A stretch of 64,000 nucleotides of DNA, from IMG/VR virus record IMGVR_UViG_3300019458_000027, positions 25,191 through 89,190 of that record; one strand, written 5' to 3'. A program made the translations under genes and the position numbers. The DNA comes from a virus. Shown in pieces: positions 39,297-62,332 of this stretch (position 1 is its first letter; each line of letters starts with the position of its first letter). The notes under the pieces were generated by a model. It was given only the letters and a program-made list of their open reading frames with translations, did not search any database and was not told where the DNA came from.

Positions 39297-40047
39297 TCCC
39301 TTCCTCCTCTCGTTTTGGGAAGGGCTTTAGTAAGTGTTTGATCGCACCAAGGTTTTTCTTCGTTTCAGCTTTACTACCACGAAAGGCAAAGTATCGTGCT
39401 TTACTAAGCTGTTTTATGACCGTGGCGTCAGGCCACACCTTTCGTACCTCATCGATCCTTTGACACCCCACTCTAGCCCTAACCGTTCTACTCCCAATTA
39501 TTTTACCTCCCGATTTTATTGCCCAACGTGTTTTATTCTTTCTCATAACTCCAGTATAAACAAAGTTGCAAGCTTGATAAATCGTGCCAACTTCTCCAGC
39601 ATTCGCATCCACCGTTGCCGTTACTACTTTATATTTCGGCGGTAGAAGCCTCATAGATTCTCTAATAAGCTTGCTAGCCGTATTTTTCGGGGTCCAATGA
39701 GCACAAGCCCCCCTAGCTAACAAGATCATCTTTCCTGTATAACCGTACTTGTCCCAAACCCCACGATTCTCCACATAATCGTGGGCGTAAATAACCACAC
39801 CCCCACATTCGTAACCTAGTCCATTTTTCCAGGGAAAGAAGATTCCGTAAGATTGAAGCATGACAGACGGCATTGTGCCTAACCACTCGTATCTCAAGAT
39901 GATCTCTTTAGTAAGTTGATAGCTTGAAGGCTTGACCACGGCCACGGAAAGATCAACGTTCACGTGGGACCACGGTTCAAGCCCGAAGTTTTTTAATTCT
40001 CTTTCCCTAATTGTGGATTGATGTGCTTTCACGGCGAAGGGTTCCAC
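39262..40047 (-). CDS. Mom-like GNAT-fold DNA modification protein
   Basis: ILRYEWLG, LARGACAH..PKNTASKLI..S, TATVD..AGEVGTIYQACNFVYTG. Confidence 0.7.
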   Translation of the reverse strand: MEPFAVKAHQSTIRERELKNFGLEPWSHVNVDLSVAVVKPSSYQLTKEIILRYEWLGTMPSVMLQSYGIFFPWKNGLGYECGGVVIYAHDYVENRGVWDKYGYTGKMILLARGACAHWTPKNTASKLIRESMRLLPPKYKVVTATVDANAGEVGTIYQACNFVYTGVMRKNKTRWAIKSGGKIIGSRTVRARVGCQRIDEVRKVWPDATVIKQLSKARYFAFRGSKAETKKNLGAIKHLLKPFPKREEEGNVRRGEVHSVS

Positions 40048-40667
40048 TTTGGATAGGGTCTAATCTGATATCTTAACTTCTTTAGTAACACTTTCCTCCG
40101 AGCTTTGCTACAGTTAAAGTAGACGTACCGATGTTTCCTCGGCCTCTCTGTGGCCAACATTTGGTTTCCTAATGCTTCTTTAGTCCTGTTCACCCCACCG
40201 TATTTATCGTACTGATGCCGATCATGCCCGATTTCACCAGGCAATTTCCACAAAACATGACGAGTGCTAAGTCCAGTATAAACCCAATTAGAAGCTTGGT
40301 AAACGTAACCCACATGATTTACGGAAGGATCGGCAAAACTTACGACGATATCCTTCTTGACCTTCTTCAAAGATTGGCTAATGACAAAACTCTCTAAGTT
40401 TTTGGGAAGTCCGTCTTCGACCCATAACCTAGTCAGTTCTATAACATTATTCGCTTCGTCTGCGCCACAAATGCCCACCTGTAAGTTTCTACTGGCCGGA
40501 ACACCATAAAGTGCAATTCCCACCAATCGGCAAACAACCTCCCCGCAATCAAAAACCCCGAAAGCATAACTACAGGGAGCTTTTCGGTGTAAATAATGGT
40601 TTCTAATGCTCAAGTCTTGAGCTAACGATTTGGCAATTGTCGTTACAACGAATCGATCAGTAATCAT
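40029..40667 (-). CDS. Mom-family adenine-modification protein
   Basis: NHYLHR, YGVPAS, VIELTRLWV, ESFVISQSL, SFADPSVNHVGYVYQASNWVYTG. Confidence 0.8.
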   Translation of the reverse strand: MITDRFVVTTIAKSLAQDLSIRNHYLHRKAPCSYAFGVFDCGEVVCRLVGIALYGVPASRNLQVGICGADEANNVIELTRLWVEDGLPKNLESFVISQSLKKVKKDIVVSFADPSVNHVGYVYQASNWVYTGLSTRHVLWKLPGEIGHDRHQYDKYGGVNRTKEALGNQMLATERPRKHRYVYFNCSKARRKVLLKKLRYQIRPYPKWNPSP

Positions 40668-43242: not shown

Positions 43243-43579
43243 TGCCTTCCTCCTCAGGCCCCATATCAAACGGCAAGGGGCCAAGTCTATTCTCAAAATC
43301 GTATTGTTCAACTAACGCCCTCGCTTGGTCCAGTACCTCAGGCGGTACATTTTTCGATAAAAGGGAAAGTACCTTTATTAGGAAGGTCGTCTGAACGGTT
43401 ACTTTGTCGAAGTCCTGCAGAATCATAACCCTCTCACGGAGGAGAGCTTGGGTAAGCTCTTCATAGCGTTGAACTAACAGCGTGAGATTTCTGAAATTCG
43501 TATATAATTCTTCCAACTCGTCGTAAGTAACAAGTTGGGGTCCAGACACCCATTTACTTATCCAGTTTAGGAGTCCCAT
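43208..43579 (-). CDS. Hypothetical protein
   Basis: Start reassigned to MGLLNW (AGGAG RBS). Confidence 0.5.
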   Translation of the reverse strand: MGLLNWISKWVSGPQLVTYDELEELYTNFRNLTLLVQRYEELTQALLRERVMILQDFDKVTVQTTFLIKVLSLLSKNVPPEVLDQARALVEQYDFENRLGPLPFDMGPEEEGNEGTGPGISGT

Positions 43580-43826
43580 CCTTCTCCTTTTGCCACCTAA
43601 CGTAGGCGTAACTTCCAACCCCGCTACCAGCTGCATACGACACAGCCAACCAAAGATTGCTAATATTAGACACGATAGACACCAAAACAGCATACCAAAT
43701 GATAACGTAGGCAAAATCCAGCATACCCGATAGAAATGCATGACCTCTGCTAATAGCTTTTACGTGCCAAGAACTAACGAAATCCTCCAACACCCCGGCG
43801 AGGAATAATCCAACAAGAAGAAGCAT
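43554..43826 (-). CDS. DUF5698/DUF2179-like 3-TM protein
   Basis: Three hydrophobic helices, YAAGSGVGSY. Confidence 0.6.
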   Translation of the reverse strand: MLLLVGLFLAGVLEDFVSSWHVKAISRGHAFLSGMLDFAYVIIWYAVLVSIVSNISNLWLAVSYAAGSGVGSYAYVRWQKEKDGTPKLDK

Positions 43827-44335
43827 TACTTTTCCTCGTCTTTGATCTTCTTGGTATACTCTTCCTTGATATGATCAAGCATGGAATCCCAGGTGTCGAA
43901 TCTCCTGCCCGTTTCCAGTAAAAGGGACAGAATCCATGAATTGACCTTACTAACGCTACCCGAACACTTCCAAAGAACGGGGATTTTTTGCTCCCAAGCT
44001 TTCACGATTTCGTGCACTGTACCACCCATCTGTGCACCGTCGGAATCGGGAACCAAAGCGATTAGAAACAAGGATTTACTAACGGCCGTGATATCCTGAT
44101 CTCTAATGGGAGCCATATCCTTAAGGAACAACTCCCACTGACCTTGTTCCTTAATCTTGGTCATTTTCGTCTTGTGTTCTACTACGGGGAGACCCGATAC
44201 GTCGGCCTCCCGAATACATGGGTCGAATACATGGAGGCCCAATTTCTCAAGATCGGGAGTCAGTCGTTCTCTCCACTTACTCCCTCCATCCTTAGCGTCC
44301 TCGATAGGTCCGCAGAGATAAACCATATATTTCAC
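43826..44335 (-). CDS. Nucleoside 2-deoxyribosyltransferase / deoxynucleotide N-hydrolase family
   Basis: VYLCGPI, FDP, DITAV, GTVHEI (catalytic Glu position), KIPV. Confidence 0.75.
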   Translation of the reverse strand: MKYMVYLCGPIEDAKDGGSKWRERLTPDLEKLGLHVFDPCIREADVSGLPVVEHKTKMTKIKEQGQWELFLKDMAPIRDQDITAVSKSLFLIALVPDSDGAQMGGTVHEIVKAWEQKIPVLWKCSGSVSKVNSWILSLLLETGRRFDTWDSMLDHIKEEYTKKIKDEEK

Positions 44336-44610
44336 GATTCCTCCTTCTCTGAACTTCCATCCTTTGGAAACTCCAACGTAACACTAACCATATTGAACTT
44401 AGCTCGGATGGTATTCAGTATCATCAGTTTGTCGGTAATCTTGTCGGCGGCGGCGTCCTCCGCTTCTGGAACAGCGATCACTGCATGGGCATTACGCAAC
44501 TCAGCATCGAGAAAGTCGCCGTAGGTCCTTAGTGCATCGAGAACCATTCGGTATTCATCAAAAGGGAACACTACTTCTGTTTTGTCGGTTTTTATCGTAA
44601 CGTCTGTCAT
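44332..44610 (-). CDS. Hypothetical protein
   Basis: 92 aa, coupled both sides. Confidence 0.55.
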   Translation of the reverse strand: MTDVTIKTDKTEVVFPFDEYRMVLDALRTYGDFLDAELRNAHAVIAVPEAEDAAADKITDKLMILNTIRAKFNMVSVTLEFPKDGSSEKEES

Positions 44611-45293
44611 TTTTCCCCTTCCTGCGTCGGAGATTTTGGATTATCTCGGTCGGTAAGTTGCTTCATAATATCCACACCGGAAGATGTTCCAATTCTCTCG
44701 GCACCATGGTTTATAAGCTCTTCCACTACATCAATTTGACGAATCCCACCAGAAGCTTTCACCTTAAGGTCATCCCTCTTGTAGTGGTTTATGATAAATA
44801 GATCGTGCGGGGTTACACCCCTAGTCTCCCATCCCGTACAAGTTTTAATCCACTCCGCTTTTGTCTCAGACACCAACCTCGCAGCGTCGGCGATCTGCCT
44901 ATCCGTCAGATGCGGAGTGCTGATAATTATCTTTAGTACCTTTTCAGGATAAGCCTCCTTAACAAGGTTAATTTCGTCCTCAACTTTATGATACGACCCG
45001 TCGAGAAAGGCAGAAATGTTCATAACCATGTCAATTTCGTCTACCCTCTTTTGAACCTCAGCAAGCTTAGCTTCCGGAGAGTTGTATCCTAAGGGAAATC
45101 CAACAACCTGTCCCACCTTAACGGGAGCATGAAGAAGTCTAGTATAAACATAGTCTACCCAATAAGGAGGAACCATTACGCTATAGAATCTATAATCCTC
45201 TGCTTCCTCAACCAGTTTGTCGTAGTCCTTTCTGGTCTTGTTCGGATTCAACATCGTGTGATCTATAAGAAGAGCCAACTCTTGCTTAATCAT
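44607..45293 (-). CDS. deoC: 2-deoxyribose-5-phosphate aldolase
   Basis: IDHTML, VVGFPLG, DEIDMV, IKTCTG (Schiff-base Lys), VKASGGIR, RIGTSSG. Confidence 0.92.
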   Translation of the reverse strand: MIKQELALLIDHTMLNPNKTRKDYDKLVEEAEDYRFYSVMVPPYWVDYVYTRLLHAPVKVGQVVGFPLGYNSPEAKLAEVQKRVDEIDMVMNISAFLDGSYHKVEDEINLVKEAYPEKVLKIIISTPHLTDRQIADAARLVSETKAEWIKTCTGWETRGVTPHDLFIINHYKRDDLKVKASGGIRQIDVVEELINHGAERIGTSSGVDIMKQLTDRDNPKSPTQEGEK

Positions 45294-45684
45294 CGACTTC
45301 TACCATCCTTTTCAACCTTCTATCGCTATAAAATCCATGCTGAGCTTTTTTCTCTTTGGTTAAGAGATCGAAGGAGTCCATCACGAATAACCACGGATTC
45401 CAGGGTCTCGTCTTAGCCCTCTTCGGGTAGAGATTGTAGGACACCCAAAGTAAGTATCCAGTCGTGAGCACCCCCACACCATAAACTGCATCCAGAATAA
45501 AGTCCCCCTTCGGGAGGACGTATATAGTTCCAATTAGGTGGGAGAGAAACGACACAATTACGAACTTTCTCGAAATAAGAATCGAGGTTGAATATTTCTT
45601 GACTTTTTTTGCTTGCCAAATGTACTTCAAGTTGTCTATCGTTCCCACAAGCAAGAGGAACGTTCCAATCAACCAAGGGATCAT
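45286..45684 (-). CDS. PQ-loop/SemiSWEET-like 3-TM protein
   Basis: TM1-YIWQAKKV...S..IS-TM2-TM3 layout. Confidence 0.45.
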   Translation of the reverse strand: MIPWLIGTFLLLVGTIDNLKYIWQAKKVKKYSTSILISRKFVIVSFLSHLIGTIYVLPKGDFILDAVYGVGVLTTGYLLWVSYNLYPKRAKTRPWNPWLFVMDSFDLLTKEKKAQHGFYSDRRLKRMVEVDD

Positions 45685-45908
45685 TTGTCCTCCTTAGTGA
45701 ATCTAACGAATTGTAGAACGTTTATCATGGCCAGTAATCCGTTTAGAATCACAAAAACCATGTCCCCCTTAAAATGGGAGTAGAAGAGCAATACAAAACA
45801 AGCTACGGCTAAAACCCCATGAAGCTTGTATCGCTTTTTCTGGAAGTAGGACACCAGTATCAGCACCATCCCAAGGTATCCGATACCATCAACAATAAGG
45901 GGGTTCAC
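45681..45908 (-). CDS. YgjV/CBU_0592-like 3-TM protein (SemiSWEET-like)
   Basis: IGYLGMVLILVSY...LLFYS...D.VFVILN. Confidence 0.55.
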   Translation of the reverse strand: MNPLIVDGIGYLGMVLILVSYFQKKRYKLHGVLAVACFVLLFYSHFKGDMVFVILNGLLAMINVLQFVRFTKEDK

Positions 45909-46404: not shown

Positions 46405-47616
46405 CTATTCATGCGGTACTACATTGAGATTGGCTTTCTCCTGCAGTACCTTGTATTTCCTAGTCTGACCGACTGGAAGGTTAGTATCCGCTAGATCGAT
46501 CGTGTAAATCCAAGTCATGCCCCTCTTCTTGTTGACCCCGAAGAATTGCTGAGCAGGGTTAGATTCGATCTTCAACACTCTCATAGCAAAGTCGTCGGAA
46601 CTAGTGAAGGTTCCGTTGGTAATAAGAGTAAGGTCTTTAGTCCAGTGAATAATGTTTGCCGTGTGGAAATGCCCCACCACCAAGTATCTAAACTTCTCTG
46701 GAATCGTGGTGGCCCATCGCATGAGGGCGGCGATAAGTCCAACCAAAGGAAGGCCCGTGCTACCACCACTAACAGCGTCTCCGTGTGTCAGCAAGAAGTT
46801 ATGCCCTTGAACTGGCACAACCGCTTTCCAGTCGTCATAGACATTGAACTTGATCTGCTTATAATTTCTGAAATGGGCTTCCAGGTGTTTGTATAGCACG
46901 TAGTCGAAGTTAGTTTTCCTGGAAGCGTACTTGTTTACCCGTCCGTGGTTCCCGTAAATACAATGTACTTCCACCTTCTTAAATAGCTTCATCATCGTCA
47001 GGAGGAAATCCCGCAGCATCGGAATCCCAAGTTGGTAAATCTGGTCAATGACCGGCATCTCAATCCCGTGGGCTTGGCCTGGATATATCATATCTCCATC
47101 AACCACGTCCCCAATGAGGAAGATGTTCAGCTTGTTAATCTTGTACCCTCTTCGGAGAAGGTTAACAATACGATGGACAGAGTAATTTAGCTTAGTGAAT
47201 CTTTCCCCCATGACGTGATAATTGAAAGTTTCCGTCCGCTTCCCGAAGTGGATATCGGACAGAACCAACACCGCCTCTTCCACAGAACGATCATCGACGG
47301 GGCCCATGATTGGCTTTTCTATGACGGGCTTGGGGTCGAAATAATTCAAGTCCTTAACCAGGGGGGTAAGGGCCTCAACCACCTGTTGTGTCTGTGTTTT
47401 CTGTTCCTCAATCTGGTCCTGAGCGGCCATAGACATGGCTCTCTTCACAATCTTTCCCTTACTTCTCAGAAGAGTTAAACGGGCAGAAACCTTCCCATAC
47501 TCAGTTTCAAGATTCTGAGCGATAGCAACCAGGGAAAGCCGACGATTGTATAGGTCAATCAACTTATCGTCGTCTGCCTGTTCCCAATATGTCCGGCCTG
47601 CTGGCGATGTTCTCAT
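46405..47616 (-). CDS. Calcineurin-like metallophosphoesterase with N-terminal HTH
   Basis: SDIHFG, GDVVDG, GNHGR, THGD, GHFH. Confidence 0.85.
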   Translation of the reverse strand: MRTSPAGRTYWEQADDDKLIDLYNRRLSLVAIAQNLETEYGKVSARLTLLRSKGKIVKRAMSMAAQDQIEEQKTQTQQVVEALTPLVKDLNYFDPKPVIEKPIMGPVDDRSVEEAVLVLSDIHFGKRTETFNYHVMGERFTKLNYSVHRIVNLLRRGYKINKLNIFLIGDVVDGDMIYPGQAHGIEMPVIDQIYQLGIPMLRDFLLTMMKLFKKVEVHCIYGNHGRVNKYASRKTNFDYVLYKHLEAHFRNYKQIKFNVYDDWKAVVPVQGHNFLLTHGDAVSGGSTGLPLVGLIAALMRWATTIPEKFRYLVVGHFHTANIIHWTKDLTLITNGTFTSSDDFAMRVLKIESNPAQQFFGVNKKRGMTWIYTIDLADTNLPVGQTRKYKVLQEKANLNVVPHE

Positions 47617-47635
47617 TACTTACCCTCCATTTCCA

Positions 47636-47800
47636 TTATACTTCGTGTGTATCCCAATGTGATTTTGAGAGTTTCTTTGATTTCTTTTTACCGCCCCCTG
47701 TTAACCGTAGCATCTCGTCTGCATAGGTCCCACGGGGTCCTAATTCATCCCTTCTACCCTGCAAAGCACTAATCCGCCTTTTCTTCATAAATGGCGTCAT
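47636..47800 (-). CDS. 54 aa basic peptide
   Basis: Fills gap after purZ homologue; not in ORF track. Confidence 0.35.
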   Translation of the reverse strand: MTPFMKKRRISALQGRRDELGPRGTYADEMLRLTGGGKKKSKKLSKSHWDTHEV

Positions 47801-47801
47801 A

Positions 47802-48869
47802 TTAGTGAAGTATCGGTCCTTCTGCTAAGCGATCAACCATATGTGTAATATCTGGCCCCGTTCCAACCAAGGTCACAGGAACACCTGTCAACTCCTGTAT
47901 TTTATCAATAAATCTCTTGGCCGATGAGGTCAGATTCTCATATTTATTGACCCCGTGATTTTTCCAGTCTATATAATCCGCAAACATCAGGGCAATTGCA
48001 CTGGGGCGGTTCGCTTTCACGGCTCGAACAACCATTTCCTCATTGAACTCGCTCACCCTCCGAACTCTTTTAGTAACCGTGGTTAGCTCTGTGATAATCC
48101 CCTCAGGAGCACCACACCGCTTAGGAACCGTTGGCCAATCAATCTCATCCGCTCCCATCGGCCCTGAGTTACCCGCCACCCTGATTGGATAGGTTCTAAC
48201 TACCATGTAGACATTATTAACCACCGTCGGAGCTAACCCACTATCAGATAGTAAACTAGCGGAGATCACATCACGTGAAGTAACAAATGGCCACTCCCCA
48301 TGATTTAAACTGATACCGTAGCCCTGTGTACCCTCAATCATAATCTTAAGGCCCCGATCTACGGCCTCATTAAGGTAGTCGGACACATTGGTTACGAACG
48401 GCTTTAACCAACCAACGTCTTTGGCTCGAAGGAAACCATCCGTACGGAGAACTTTCTCAGCTTGAGCTTCTCCAATTCCTTCGCAAGTGGAACCCAGTTT
48501 CTCGAACATTCTCCTTTGCTGTTCGTTTAACCGATGTTTCTCGGTAACTATGCCGGCATTCCGGTCGATCTTTAGGCGAGTTGTGGAGTGGGGAACCAAG
48601 TCCATTTCGGCTTTGAGGACTGTTTCCTCCAACAATCCATTCGCACCAACACACAACACCGTGGTGTCGTCAACCAAACCCGCACACGGAAGCTGTCTCA
48701 TCTTCCACTTCTGGTCACCAACCTGAACGGTATGCCCTGCATTGGGGGCACCAACCCGTACGGCAACATCATAATGACTTTTCTTGGCAAGATAGGCAAC
48801 CACGGCTCCCTTACCCTCCGAGCCATATTGCCCCCCAACAATTAGATCGACCGATTTAGTCTTTTCCAT
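47802..48869 (-). CDS. purZ: Adenylosuccinate synthetase homologue of PurZ/PurZ0 type
   Basis: GGQYGSEGKG (Ser where PurA has Asp), PNAGHT, IEGTQG, PFVTSRD, PIRVAGNSG, TTVTKRVRRV, MFADY; start at MEKTK (GAGGAG RBS). Confidence 0.8.
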   Translation of the reverse strand: MEKTKSVDLIVGGQYGSEGKGAVVAYLAKKSHYDVAVRVGAPNAGHTVQVGDQKWKMRQLPCAGLVDDTTVLCVGANGLLEETVLKAEMDLVPHSTTRLKIDRNAGIVTEKHRLNEQQRRMFEKLGSTCEGIGEAQAEKVLRTDGFLRAKDVGWLKPFVTNVSDYLNEAVDRGLKIMIEGTQGYGISLNHGEWPFVTSRDVISASLLSDSGLAPTVVNNVYMVVRTYPIRVAGNSGPMGADEIDWPTVPKRCGAPEGIITELTTVTKRVRRVSEFNEEMVVRAVKANRPSAIALMFADYIDWKNHGVNKYENLTSSAKRFIDKIQELTGVPVTLVGTGPDITHMVDRLAEGPILH

Positions 48870-48888
48870 TGATTTCTCCTCACCGTTA

Positions 48889-50550
48889 TTATACCCTCTC
48901 CAACACCTTAGATACTCCGTTCTCTTTAACGACCTCAGACACATTGATGGTTCTATCCCGAACGTCAGTATGACTAATCACCAATACCTTCTTGAATTGT
49001 TCTGTTAATCGGGACACAAGGGAAATGAATCGATCTCTTCCTTCCTCGTCCAATGATTCCGAAGCTTCATCAATAATGAGGGTCTTGAGACGATAGCTAT
49101 TCCTACGGGCCAAGACCACAGCAATTCCTAACCGAACAGCCAAATCTATTCGGGCCTTCTCTCCCCCGCTGAAATTGCTATAAATTCGGTCGTGTAACCC
49201 ATCGTAGATGAAAAGCTGTAGAGTGTCAGCTATTCCTCCACCCTTTAATTCCTTCTCCAAACGCAATTCTACCCTGAACCGTCCGTTTGTTAACTGATCA
49301 AGAAAGGTATTGGCCGCCAGTTGGACTTCCTCCAATGCGGAGGACATGATAATGGTGGGGATACCGTTACTGCCAAAAGCGTCCAACAGATACCGATAAA
49401 TGGCAAATTCCTCCTTCTTTGTTGTTATCTTACTCTGTAATTCGCTAAGTTGGGCTTTCAAACGGGTCTGGTTGTCATACATGGAAACAATATAACCACG
49501 CTTTTCGCTAAGCTCCTGCAAAGTTTTCTCATATCCATTCACTAATATAGCGTTCTCACTGATCTCGAAAGTTAGATTCCCGAAATCCTTCTTAGAAAAG
49601 GTCTCAATCTCGGCATAAATAGCTTCCAGCTTGTCTTTATATGAGGCCATATGCTCTTGGAGTCTCTGGATGGCCACACTACGGGATTTATCGCTCCATC
49701 CCCCTCCACAAAAGGGACAACTATCGGAGCTTATCCCATTTAGAGACGACTCCAACAATTGAAGCTCCTCTACTTTATTTTGTAAGAACTCTCTCTTTCC
49801 ATTTAGCTTGTCGAGGAGGTCTTGATTTTCTTTTTTAGCCGCCTCCAATATGTGTGTCAAGTAACGTTGTTTGCTATTAACTTCTATCCTAGCATCGTTG
49901 ACAACGTTAATTCGAAGGTCGAGAGATTGAAGTTTCTCTTCCGAACCCTCTAGTGGGATAGCTTCTTGTTCTAAAGTTTTGGCCCTAGTTTCATATTCAA
50001 TGAGGTCGTTTTGGATTATTCTCACGTTTTCTCGTACTTTGGTTTCGTAAGTTTGATACTCCGACAATCCTAGGATATCATAAAAGACCCTCTTAGCTTC
50101 CTTGGGGGTTAGGGAAGAGAAGGAACTTAGTTTTCCTTGTTCAATACAAGCGGAATTGGAAAAAGTTTCATATGTAAATCCTAAAACCCGTTCAATCTTT
50201 TGCTGTGTGTCTGCCAGAGTGTCCCCCGTTATTTCCTCGTCGTTCTTAAAAAAGGAAAGGTAAGACTTTTCGTTACGATTCCTACCCCGAATTACAGTAT
50301 AAGAATCCCCGTTCAAACCAAATCCTACCGTAACCTCGGCGTAATCTTCGCCCTCGGTTATAAGCTGGTCCCCCGCCCTATCTTTGTTCCGGGCCACCCC
50401 AAACAAACCCCAAGTTATGGAATCTTTAACTAACGAGGACTTCCCCGCTCCATTTTTTCCGACAAAAACCTTAACCGATGTGTTGGAGAAATCCAACACC
50501 GTGTCCTTATGACTAAGGAAATTAGTCAGTTTCAGACTTAGGATATTCAT
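48889..50550 (-). CDS. sbcC: Rad50/SbcC/gp46-like ATPase
   Basis: GKNGAGKS, CPFC hook, FSGGE, LIIDE, VISH. Confidence 0.92.
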   Translation of the reverse strand: MNILSLKLTNFLSHKDTVLDFSNTSVKVFVGKNGAGKSSLVKDSITWGLFGVARNKDRAGDQLITEGEDYAEVTVGFGLNGDSYTVIRGRNRNEKSYLSFFKNDEEITGDTLADTQQKIERVLGFTYETFSNSACIEQGKLSSFSSLTPKEAKRVFYDILGLSEYQTYETKVRENVRIIQNDLIEYETRAKTLEQEAIPLEGSEEKLQSLDLRINVVNDARIEVNSKQRYLTHILEAAKKENQDLLDKLNGKREFLQNKVEELQLLESSLNGISSDSCPFCGGGWSDKSRSVAIQRLQEHMASYKDKLEAIYAEIETFSKKDFGNLTFEISENAILVNGYEKTLQELSEKRGYIVSMYDNQTRLKAQLSELQSKITTKKEEFAIYRYLLDAFGSNGIPTIIMSSALEEVQLAANTFLDQLTNGRFRVELRLEKELKGGGIADTLQLFIYDGLHDRIYSNFSGGEKARIDLAVRLGIAVVLARRNSYRLKTLIIDEASESLDEEGRDRFISLVSRLTEQFKKVLVISHTDVRDRTINVSEVVKENGVSKVLERV

Positions 50551-61828: not shown

Positions 61829-62332
61829 CTATCTCTTAACTAGAGTTTCCGCTTTAGCAAATAAAGCGTCTACCTTAGCATAGAGATCATCGAATCCTGT
61901 ATTGTTGTCAAGTACCGCAGATACGGGGTACTCGTCCATCTCGGTTTCAGAGGCATGGTTGTCAACGATTCCAGTATCCCGTTGGACACGGACGACAATG
62001 CCGCCCAATTCCTTAATGGCCTCGGCCTCATTTGGGAAACGAACATCTGGAATGACGAAGCATACACTATCGTCTTTCTTCCACACCTTCTCAATGAACT
62101 TTGTTACAACCCGAATCCAGAAACCTTGGTCGTAGTTTCTGACCACCATACCCAACTCCTGGAGAAGCTTCCGTCCTTGCTGATCTTTCTTTCCGCTCCA
62201 ACCGACAAGCCCCGCTACCTTTTTCAAGTAGTCGGCGTTGCCGATTCTTTCATACCCATAGCGGAGAACAAGATACGATGCTACTGTATCCTTGCCCACC
62301 CGTTGCTTTCCGGTAAGTCCAATTACAACCAT
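61829..62332 (-). CDS. Deoxynucleoside monophosphate kinase
   Basis: GLTGKQRVGKDT, RKLLQELG, PDVRFPNEA, HASE. Confidence 0.9.
   Translation of the reverse strand: MVVIGLTGKQRVGKDTVASYLVLRYGYERIGNADYLKKVAGLVGWSGKKDQQGRKLLQELGMVVRNYDQGFWIRVVTKFIEKVWKKDDSVCFVIPDVRFPNEAEAIKELGGIVVRVQRDTGIVDNHASETEMDEYPVSAVLDNNTGFDDLYAKVDALFAKAETLVKR

Follow-up and report, generated by a model that had tools for sequence, protein, structure and literature searches.

A predicted NDT-fold deoxynucleotide N-glycosidase translationally coupled to the aldolase DeoC in a phage with a PurZ-like gene

The 104,918-bp IMG/VR virus record IMGVR_UViG_3300019458_000027, rated by CheckV as 100% complete, encodes a deoxyribose-phosphate aldolase (DERA), DeoC, and a protein with the fold of the NDT family (nucleoside 2-deoxyribosyltransferases) in a gene array that also includes a PurZ-like gene. 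The window analyzed here comprises 64,000 nucleotides (nt) and corresponds to bases 25191-89190 of this record; unless otherwise indicated, coordinates refer to the window. All the genes around the DeoC/NDT-like pair are on the minus strand. The NDT-fold protein, P0001, a predicted N-glycosidase of 2'-deoxynucleoside 5'-monophosphates (dNMPs), has 169 amino acids (aa) and is encoded at 43826..44335, and DeoC (P0002, 228 aa) at 44607..45293, where a first-pass annotation made from the sequence had placed them. A single 92-aa open reading frame (ORF), orf92 (P0003, 44332..44610), separates the two genes and overlaps each of them by 4 nt; this ORF has no match in Pfam, PHROG or NCBIfam and no homologue in any of the loci compared. 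The NDT-like gene has a GTG start codon and overlaps the stop codon of the gene upstream.

Following the direction of transcription, the array includes the genes encoding an SbcC/Rad50-like ATPase (48889..50550; AAA_23, SMC_N and SbcC_Walker_B), and directly downstream the PurZ-like adenylosuccinate-synthetase homologue (47802..48869), a 54-aa ORF, an SbcD/Mre11-like exonuclease (46405..47616; Metallophos, 31.4 bits; phrog_284 exonuclease, 1.8e-49), orf163 (P0167, 45905..46396; no match in Pfam, PHROG or NCBIfam), a 75-aa YgjV-like membrane protein with two hydrophobic segments (45681..45908; PF10688, 23.2 bits with a cut-off of 23.5), a 132-aa hydrophobic protein (P0004, 45286..45684; no family match), DeoC, orf92, the NDT-like protein and, at the end of the chain, a 90-aa DUF5698 membrane protein (43554..43826; PF18955, 33.4 bits with a cut-off of 27.5). 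The seven genes from orf163, the first of the overlapping chain, to the gene of the 90-aa protein overlap by 1-8 nt at every junction (8 nt between P0004 and DeoC, and 1 nt between the NDT-like gene and the last gene), and the gaps upstream of orf163 are of 1-19 nt. From these overlaps and short gaps it follows that translation of DeoC and of the NDT-like gene is coupled, and that both belong to a single co-directional array extending from the SbcC-like gene to that of the 90-aa membrane protein. The pair is located 2.5-3.5 kb downstream of the PurZ-like gene, with at least four genes between. It had been proposed that these genes form an operon headed by purZ0; the PurZ-like gene indeed belongs to the array but it is placed inside it, given that the SbcC-like gene and others come before, at distances of at most 19 nt. 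Sequences resembling promoters or terminators were no more frequent in this region than in shuffled sequence. The motif GTATAAT is present 18-25 nt upstream of the start codons of the PurZ-like and SbcD-like genes (48870-48895 and 47617-47642), where it could represent internal promoters. A megablast search of the region against GenBank phages gave no match.

The single sequence of P0001 gave 27.1 bits on the Pfam model PF15891 (Nuc_deoxyri_tr2), under its cut-off of 30, no match to PF05014 (Nuc_deoxyrib_tr) at E ≤ 0.01, and no match to PDB sequences with phmmer even at E ≤ 10. The AlphaFold2 model, obtained from an alignment of eight sequences, had a pLDDT of 84 and a pTM of 0.80, and in a Foldseek search its top 17 matches were all NDT, DNPH1 or YtoQ structures (including 6evs, 8pqs and 2a0k); the best PDB matches were the NDTs of Bacillus psychrosaccharolyticus and Chroococcidiopsis, Trypanosoma brucei PDT (TbPDT), human DNPH1, YtoQ and MilB. 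VIA-align superimposed 130-136 residues of the model, with Z scores of 15.6 (7m5h), 14.7 (7o62), 14.5 (6evs) and 13.4 (human DNPH1). In addition, a profile made of 28 sequences of the P0001 family matched TbPDT (2a0k) with an E value of 0.0024, and in this alignment Tyr6 corresponds to the catalytic tyrosine, Asp81 to the Asp/Asn position and Glu109, in the sequence GGTVHE, to the glutamate nucleophile. The NDT fold anticipated in the first-pass annotation and the Tyr6/Asp81/Glu109 triad are therefore established for P0001, whose key residues also include the acidic Glu12, Arg22, Pro39 and Trp134. DNPH1/Rcl and the CMP N-glycosidases MilB and BcmB share this fold (VIA Z scores of 12-13.4), and as nucleotide N-glycosidases with a glutamate nucleophile they carry out the type of reaction that we propose for P0001; they differ from it in that they have no detectable similarity at the level of PDB sequence with the single P0001 sequence and in that, to our knowledge, none of them is encoded beside an aldolase.

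The partner of P0001 is a true DeoC equivalog. On the NCBIfam model TIGR00126 (deoC) it scored 186.7 bits, for an equivalog cut-off of 117.3, and it aligned over its full length with the DERAs of known structure in the PDB with E values of 7e-41 to 1e-34; the marginal score on the Pfam DeoC model PF01791 (22 bits, under the 23.8 cut-off) is a weakness of that broad model. Among 1.84 billion representative proteins, 7,480 relatives were found at E ≤ 0.001, typically of about 220 aa and around 40% identical. The catalytic residues Asp88, Lys121, the Schiff-base Lys150 (IKTCTG, the KTxTG motif) and Lys179 (VKASGG) align with those of the DERAs 5dbu and 1j2w, and they are invariant in 82 viral DeoC proteins. 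This agrees with the earlier description of the gene as a catalytically complete deoC, for which DERA activity is predicted; deoxyribose-5-phosphate (dR5P) is, as far as we know, the only substrate of DeoC. P0002 is 40-45% identical to cellular DERAs and has the same catalytic residues as the DeoC of the bacterial deo regulon. In the deo pathway dR5P is supplied by a nucleoside phosphorylase and phosphopentomutase; in contrast, the supplier in this phage would be a one-step N-glycosidase acting on a nucleotide. The clade formed by P0002, P0011 and P0012 also differs from other DERAs in having IISTPH or IIGLPY in place of IIET.

The relatives of P0001 form a large phage family. Only five close relatives, with 58-68% identity, were found among 5.8 billion proteins, and scans of IMG/VR with the single NDT-like or PurZ-like sequence gave no match, so that profiles were needed; the profile scan revealed at least 242 contigs with relatives of P0001, of 28-39% identity. 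A metagenome scan for the contexts of the closest homologues returned one distant locus. In 103 members of the family Tyr6, Gly9, Gly18, Trp21, Arg22 (in the loop that follows the catalytic tyrosine), Pro39, Asp81, Gly105, Glu109, Pro119 and Trp134 are nearly invariant, Arg22 being invariant and Tyr6, Asp81 and Glu109 being conserved in 102-103 of them; an Asp or Glu occupies position 12 except in six members. Six positions before the catalytic glutamate the residue is Ala, Ser or Thr, or Met in the clade of the window protein (Met103 in P0001). In the same alignment, the aspartate that occupies this position in TbPDT (PDCGTAFE), and that we take to be the ligand of the 5'-OH group in nucleoside transferases, is never present in the family. 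Among the members paired with DeoC, three ORFs are unusually long, with 335-348 aa (L107:10656-11660, L136:10648-11691 and L161:10651-11676). They continue into an HNH_3/AP2 homing-endonuclease tail, recognized with Pfam in L107 and L136, the two that were scanned, and for that reason we rejected these two as informative enzyme fusions.

A characterized enzyme of this type is known from PurZ0 phages. Poubanne et al. (NAR 2026, PMC12884076) reported that the phages Ghobes and Wayne encode the NDT-family protein DmtZ, which hydrolyses deoxyadenosine monophosphate (dAMP) to adenine and dR5P, is able to transfer dR5P to the base Z, and acts downstream of the dATP/dGTP diphosphatase DutZ. The removal of dA by an NDT-family enzyme, which had been taken in the first-pass annotation as a possible new route, is as regards its first step already published, and this step is the one that we propose for P0001. 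Mutagenesis showed that Tyr6, Asp12, Asn77 and Glu103 of DmtZ are important, Asp12 being the proposed reader of adenine N6, whereas the roles of Pro57 and Trp124 were deduced from modelling; the authors also pointed out that the pocket has uncharged, space-saving residues, as in dNMP hydrolases (PMC12884076). We identified Ghobes gp53 as DmtZ, given that its residues 6, 11, 12, 13, 57, 77, 98, 99, 103 and 124 are exactly those of the paper.

The comparison of the two families with hhalign gave a probability of 97.3% and an E value of 2.4e-11, and placed Pro39, Asp81, Glu109 and the lid residue Trp134 of P0001 on DmtZ Pro57, Asn77, Glu103 and Trp124, with Tyr6 common to both. There are two conservative differences, Glu12 in the position of DmtZ Asp12 and Asp81 in that of Asn77. 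An uncharged residue is found six positions before the glutamate in both proteins (Thr97 in Ghobes DmtZ). Among viral models (BFVD), Ghobes DmtZ ranked 13th for the P0001 structure. A DmtZ profile built from 26 PurZ-adjacent proteins gave 22.1 bits for P0001, up to 42 bits for other members of its family and 99 for Ghobes DmtZ. We considered whether P0001 could be a member of the DmtZ clade and rejected it: a BLASTP comparison with Ghobes gp53 was not significant, the score on the DmtZ profile was the 22.1 bits mentioned above, and P0001 is placed in a family of its own, which comprises no fewer than 242 viral proteins. From these sequence comparisons P0001 is a DmtZ homologue with a DmtZ-like active site that falls outside the DmtZ clade, and the residues that it shares with DmtZ are what suggests that it may prefer dA. 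The genomic surroundings also resemble each other in part, since in both cases an NDT-fold enzyme is encoded near a PurZ-type gene (about 3.5 kb upstream of P0001), but DmtZ accompanies PurZ0 and DutZ, whereas this genome has no DutZ or other dUTPase-family gene.

Another group of NDTs has been associated with Z-type phages. Yang et al. (bioRxiv 10.1101/2025.10.22.683976) found that NDTs of the PF05014 family are enriched on dZ contigs, and that one of them prefers dA as nucleoside donor. These proteins, among them NDT-M2, resemble P0001 in being encoded by NDT-superfamily genes tied to Z-type phages, and the preference for dA reported for one of them supports the idea that P0001 could be a deoxynucleoside transferase that exchanges adenine for Z or another base, with DeoC acting in a separate salvage pathway. 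The top structural matches of P0001 are also nucleoside transferases, and it conserves Pro39, a proline that the authors of the DmtZ study describe as conserved in all known transferases, where it shields the site from water (PMC12884076). Nonetheless, NDT-M2 and its relatives are nucleoside transferases that match PF05014 and co-occur with DatZ, whereas P0001 lacks a PF05014 match, its entire family lacks the aspartate that TbPDT has six residues before the glutamate, and its genome lacks DatZ. Furthermore, a base exchange releases no sugar, so the recurrent coupling with DeoC described below would be left without explanation; we therefore consider a transferase improbable, and favor a hydrolase acting on nucleotides rather than on nucleosides. 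Given that TIR domains share this fold, and that TIR chains (SARM1, SPARTA and the short-pAgo TIR-APAZ) were present lower in the structure lists, P0001 could also be viewed as a counter-defence enzyme, one that would eliminate an immune signal derived from nucleotides or a NAD-like molecule. This is the most improbable explanation among those that we considered: the specific NDT triad and a GTxxE motif are present, the profile matches NDT and DmtZ and not TIR, and the partner DeoC handles only a deoxy-sugar phosphate.

The evidence that most directly supports hydrolysis comes from the distribution of the gene pair. A DeoC profile search of IMG/VR detected about 90 contigs, so that DeoC, a gene that had not been associated with phages, is rare in them but present. 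From these, 82 viral loci in which DeoC is intact were compared, and 43 of them have, on the same strand as DeoC and downstream of it, an NDT-like gene of the P0001 family, within approximately 1.3 kb in 34 cases; in most cases the two genes overlap by a few bases or are separated by a few hundred. The 40 DeoC proteins whose NDT-like partner scored above 30 bits all keep the catalytic aspartate and the three lysines. Fusions between DeoC and an NDT-like protein were absent from the 150 best DeoC representatives. Since DeoC has a single known substrate and the coupling is conserved, this association is, of the evidence available, what argues most strongly for a release of dR5P by the NDT-like family, whose members would then hydrolyse dNMPs instead of exchanging bases. 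The coupling is conserved across phages and undescribed in the literature that we searched; for phage-encoded DeoC, or DeoC together with an NDT, only the DmtZ study was found, in which DeoC is the coupling enzyme of an assay and not a phage gene (PMC12884076), and DeoC is not a phage gene in the work of Yang et al. either (bioRxiv 10.1101/2025.10.22.683976).

The phylogenies of both proteins suggest a repeated assembly of the pair. P0001 belongs, in the tree of the NDT-like proteins, to a clade of nine rows (SH-aLRT 99) that also includes P0006-P0010 and L014-L016; this clade is nested among proteins without a DeoC partner, and those that have one are grouped in other clades. In the tree of DeoC, P0002 groups with P0011 and P0012 in a clade of three rows (98), the next neighbors of which are ordinary representative DeoC proteins and not the paired phage DeoCs. 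Forcing all the paired DeoCs and the window clade into a single clade, a group that was defined after the tree had been seen, cost 137 log-likelihood units (p-AU 0.010). Given that the window genes are placed outside the clades of fixed pairs and that a single clade is rejected, the DeoC/NDT-like association probably arose more than once. The closest DeoC, P0011 (55% identical), and the NDT-like protein P0007 (63% identical) are ENA metagenome proteins whose longest contig is in both cases of 9,127 bp; probably they are encoded on one contig, and the pair of the window type would be present in at least one more phage. The nearest viral DeoC (43% identical; region L004:10001-14537), from an 82-kb contig without PurZ, has no NDT-like neighbor; the genes in its vicinity include those of an NT5C-type 5'-deoxynucleotidase and an HD_5 phosphohydrolase, which may constitute a different route into DeoC.

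The PurZ-like gene and other features of the genome bear on the nucleotide that this pair would act on. The PurZ-like protein, whose start we assigned to Met26 of the long ORF at 47802-48944, matched PF00709 with 180 bits and carries the sequence GGQYGSEGKG, with a serine at the position of PurA Asp13; it scored 228.5 bits on the NCBIfam PurZ model NF038379 (cut-off 300) and 322 bits on the adenylosuccinate synthetase model PRK04293 (cut-off 368). Its best phage matches, with 32-36% identity, were in Bacillus phage vB_BpsS-140, Ghobes and Arthrobacter phages (PurZ0 actinophages). The DNA polymerase is an 844-aa fusion of a UDG domain, a 3'-5' exonuclease and PolA, encoded on the minus strand at 89029-91563 of the genome (from 63839 of the window onward; L010:30-2564). 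Of the 80 nearest PurZ loci, selected from 370 PurZ-like IMG/VR contigs and inspected with flanks of 10 kb, 47 have a homologue of this polymerase immediately next to PurZ; the polymerase may be of the DpoZ type, and the UDG domain has been flagged as dZ-associated (bioRxiv 10.1101/2025.10.22.683976). The genome also encodes a phage dNMP kinase (61829..62332, minus strand; PF21448 DNMK, 65.3 bits), which could convert dZMP or dGMP into the diphosphate. On the basis of the serine of the PurZ-like protein, the PolA homologues placed beside PurZ and the dNMP kinase, a Z genome is plausible for this phage. Also in the window, one of two tandem Mom-like genes (40029-40667, minus strand) has a 129-bit homologue directly upstream of PurZ at L223:9294-9959, and these genes may travel with PurZ.

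Phages with Z genomes are known to exclude adenine by means of the dATP hydrolases DatZ, DutZ and DUF5664, to which the dAMP hydrolase DmtZ was added in 2026. The first-pass annotation had noted that no HD-type dATPase was visible in the window, and this observation extends to the complete genome, whose remaining part was also negative for datZ and mazZ: in the six-frame translation of the 104,918-bp record there was no HD, YfbR-like, HD_3, MazG, dUTPase, DUF5664, DUF550 or NUDIX match, and thus no recognizable DatZ, MazZ or DutZ. A novel dNTPase may be present among the ORFs that lack any match, i.e. orf163, orf92 and several others.

Bringing these data together, we propose that P0001 would split a dNMP into the free base and dR5P through a glycosyl-enzyme formed at Glu109, as DNPH1 and DmtZ do, and that DeoC would then cleave dR5P to glyceraldehyde-3-phosphate and acetaldehyde, a step that would make the loss of the nucleotide irreversible and prevent the accumulation of dR5P. 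This two-step conversion, which the first-pass annotation had outlined with dAMP as the starting nucleotide, is the simplest reading of a recurrent pair, even if its first step was already known. Given that the PurZ-like gene lies between the SbcC-like and SbcD-like nuclease genes, these nucleases would supply the dNMPs; PurZ would draw on dGMP, and the NDT-like enzyme would remove the dAMP that results from host DNA breakdown or from dATP turnover before it is phosphorylated again, so that adenine would be kept out of the Z-substituted DNA while DeoC disposes of dR5P. The most plausible target in this phage is dAMP, since the pair follows the PurZ-like gene and the genes of two nucleases in a genome with no recognizable dATPase. 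We give roughly even chances to this reading as a whole, namely an NDT-fold dNMP N-glycosidase that forms with DeoC a portable module and that in this phage removes dAMP. The stricter version, in which a two-enzyme module assembled more than once would be the sole device for adenine exclusion in this phage and would replace DatZ, DutZ and MazZ by using monophosphates released by nucleases, is rather doubtful.

Several observations weigh against dAMP removal, and some of them bear on the N-glycosidase itself. Structure comparison cannot separate transferases from hydrolases, as templates of both kinds are within about 2 Z units; P0001 has, besides the lack of a significant BLASTP match to DmtZ, the lowest score but one of its family on the DmtZ profile. 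Its clade also lacks the RW-FF motif that the family has at the C-terminal end, and has Met instead of a small residue six positions before the glutamate. None of the 81 nearest NDT-like loci has DeoC within 10 kb, and in 54 of these loci without DeoC (L014-L093; for example L090:11636-12706 and L037:5615-6739) a GT4 glycosyltransferase gene directly follows the NDT-like gene. The activity assigned to the NDT-like family is a prediction for all of its members, and the Z content of the DNA of this phage is presumed from its genes. In 36 of the 81 loci a gene of the IMPDH/GMP-reductase family is located about 3.6 kb upstream of the NDT-like gene; together with the GT4 glycosyltransferase gene it represents a second conserved context.

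The relationship between the pair and PurZ is also weaker than had been anticipated. The co-occurrence of deoC and the NDT gene with purZ, suggested as a test of the proposal, was not observed: PF00709 (PurA/PurZ) has no match in the 43 records that carry the pair, nine of which are at least 90% complete, and the other 36 DeoC records also lack a PurZ-type gene (0 of 79 DeoC-bearing viral records in total). The only PF00709 match among DeoC records, with 450 bits, was in provirus G002 and presumably corresponds to the host purA. Reciprocally, the 80 nearest PurZ loci gave no DeoC match in their 10-kb flanks, even with the E value relaxed to 10. About 26 of these loci contain a gene of the DmtZ type, and 46 one of the DutZ type; the absence of DeoC is another difference from the DmtZ phages. 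PurZ is absent within 10 kb of the 81 nearest NDT-like loci, and both PurZ and DeoC are missing from L014-L016, the phages whose NDT-like proteins are closest to P0001, one of which is represented by an 84-kb contig. Because deoC does not as a rule co-occur with purZ, the pair is probably a free-standing, portable phage module that is not specific for Z. Elsewhere the genes next to the pair encode ligases, a DNA methylase and an AAA ATPase, and in the 34 tightly paired records a thymidylate-synthase-family gene was found only once and a gene of the TGT family (TGT/DpdA) in none. With base-replacement genes nearly absent and 43 paired records devoid of PurZ, the usual role of the family would not be adenine exclusion, and its usual substrate need not be dAMP.

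From these distributions, the same chemistry could operate in this phage with no relation to Z, either scavenging deoxynucleotides of the host DNA as a source of bases and glycolytic carbon or removing another dNMP, and the proximity of the PurZ-like gene, from which the pair is separated by the distance and the intervening genes already mentioned, would be incidental. We regard this explanation as unlikely, although these surveys speak for it. It would leave the genome with no other candidate for the exclusion of adenine; the nearest characterized relatives, i.e. DmtZ, are specific for dAMP and share with P0001 the acidic residue located six positions after the tyrosine; and the pair and the PurZ-like gene are part of one co-directional array whose gaps do not exceed 19 nt.

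The direction of the flux can also be questioned, as the DERA reaction is reversible. In the opposite direction DeoC would make dR5P from glyceraldehyde-3-phosphate and acetaldehyde, and the NDT-like enzyme would add a base, for example Z, to yield a dNMP without the participation of ribonucleotide reductase. Joining a base to a free sugar phosphate is unfavorable in energetic terms, and the NDT mechanism requires a glycosidic donor to form the intermediate linked to the glutamate. The transfer catalyzed by DmtZ was demonstrated only from dAMP and not from free dR5P (PMC12884076). A synthetic pathway is for these reasons very improbable, and the degradative direction, from dNMP to glyceraldehyde-3-phosphate and acetaldehyde, is the one that we favor.

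If the assignment is true, it would add an irreversible step to the published DmtZ pathway, it would provide the first functional lead for a large family of phage proteins (the at least 242 IMG/VR contigs mentioned above), and it would explain why phages carry deoC, a housekeeping catabolic gene. The independence of the pair from PurZ calls for caution as well, in that an NDT-like gene beside purZ is not automatically one of the Z pathway.

Two additional observations concern the surroundings of the NDT-like genes. The three small hydrophobic proteins coupled with the pair (43554-43826, 45286-45684 and 45681-45908) could form a small transporter, whose cargo would be the released base or a nucleoside; no counterpart of them was recognized beside the DeoC/NDT-like pair in other phages. 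In a 190-kb phage, a 311-aa ORF located about 2.5 kb upstream of PurZ (L230:6517-7452) matched the NDT-like profile with 26 bits and the dNMP kinase of the present phage with 53; this ORF may be a fusion of an NDT with a kinase, an arrangement that would favor nucleotides as substrates.

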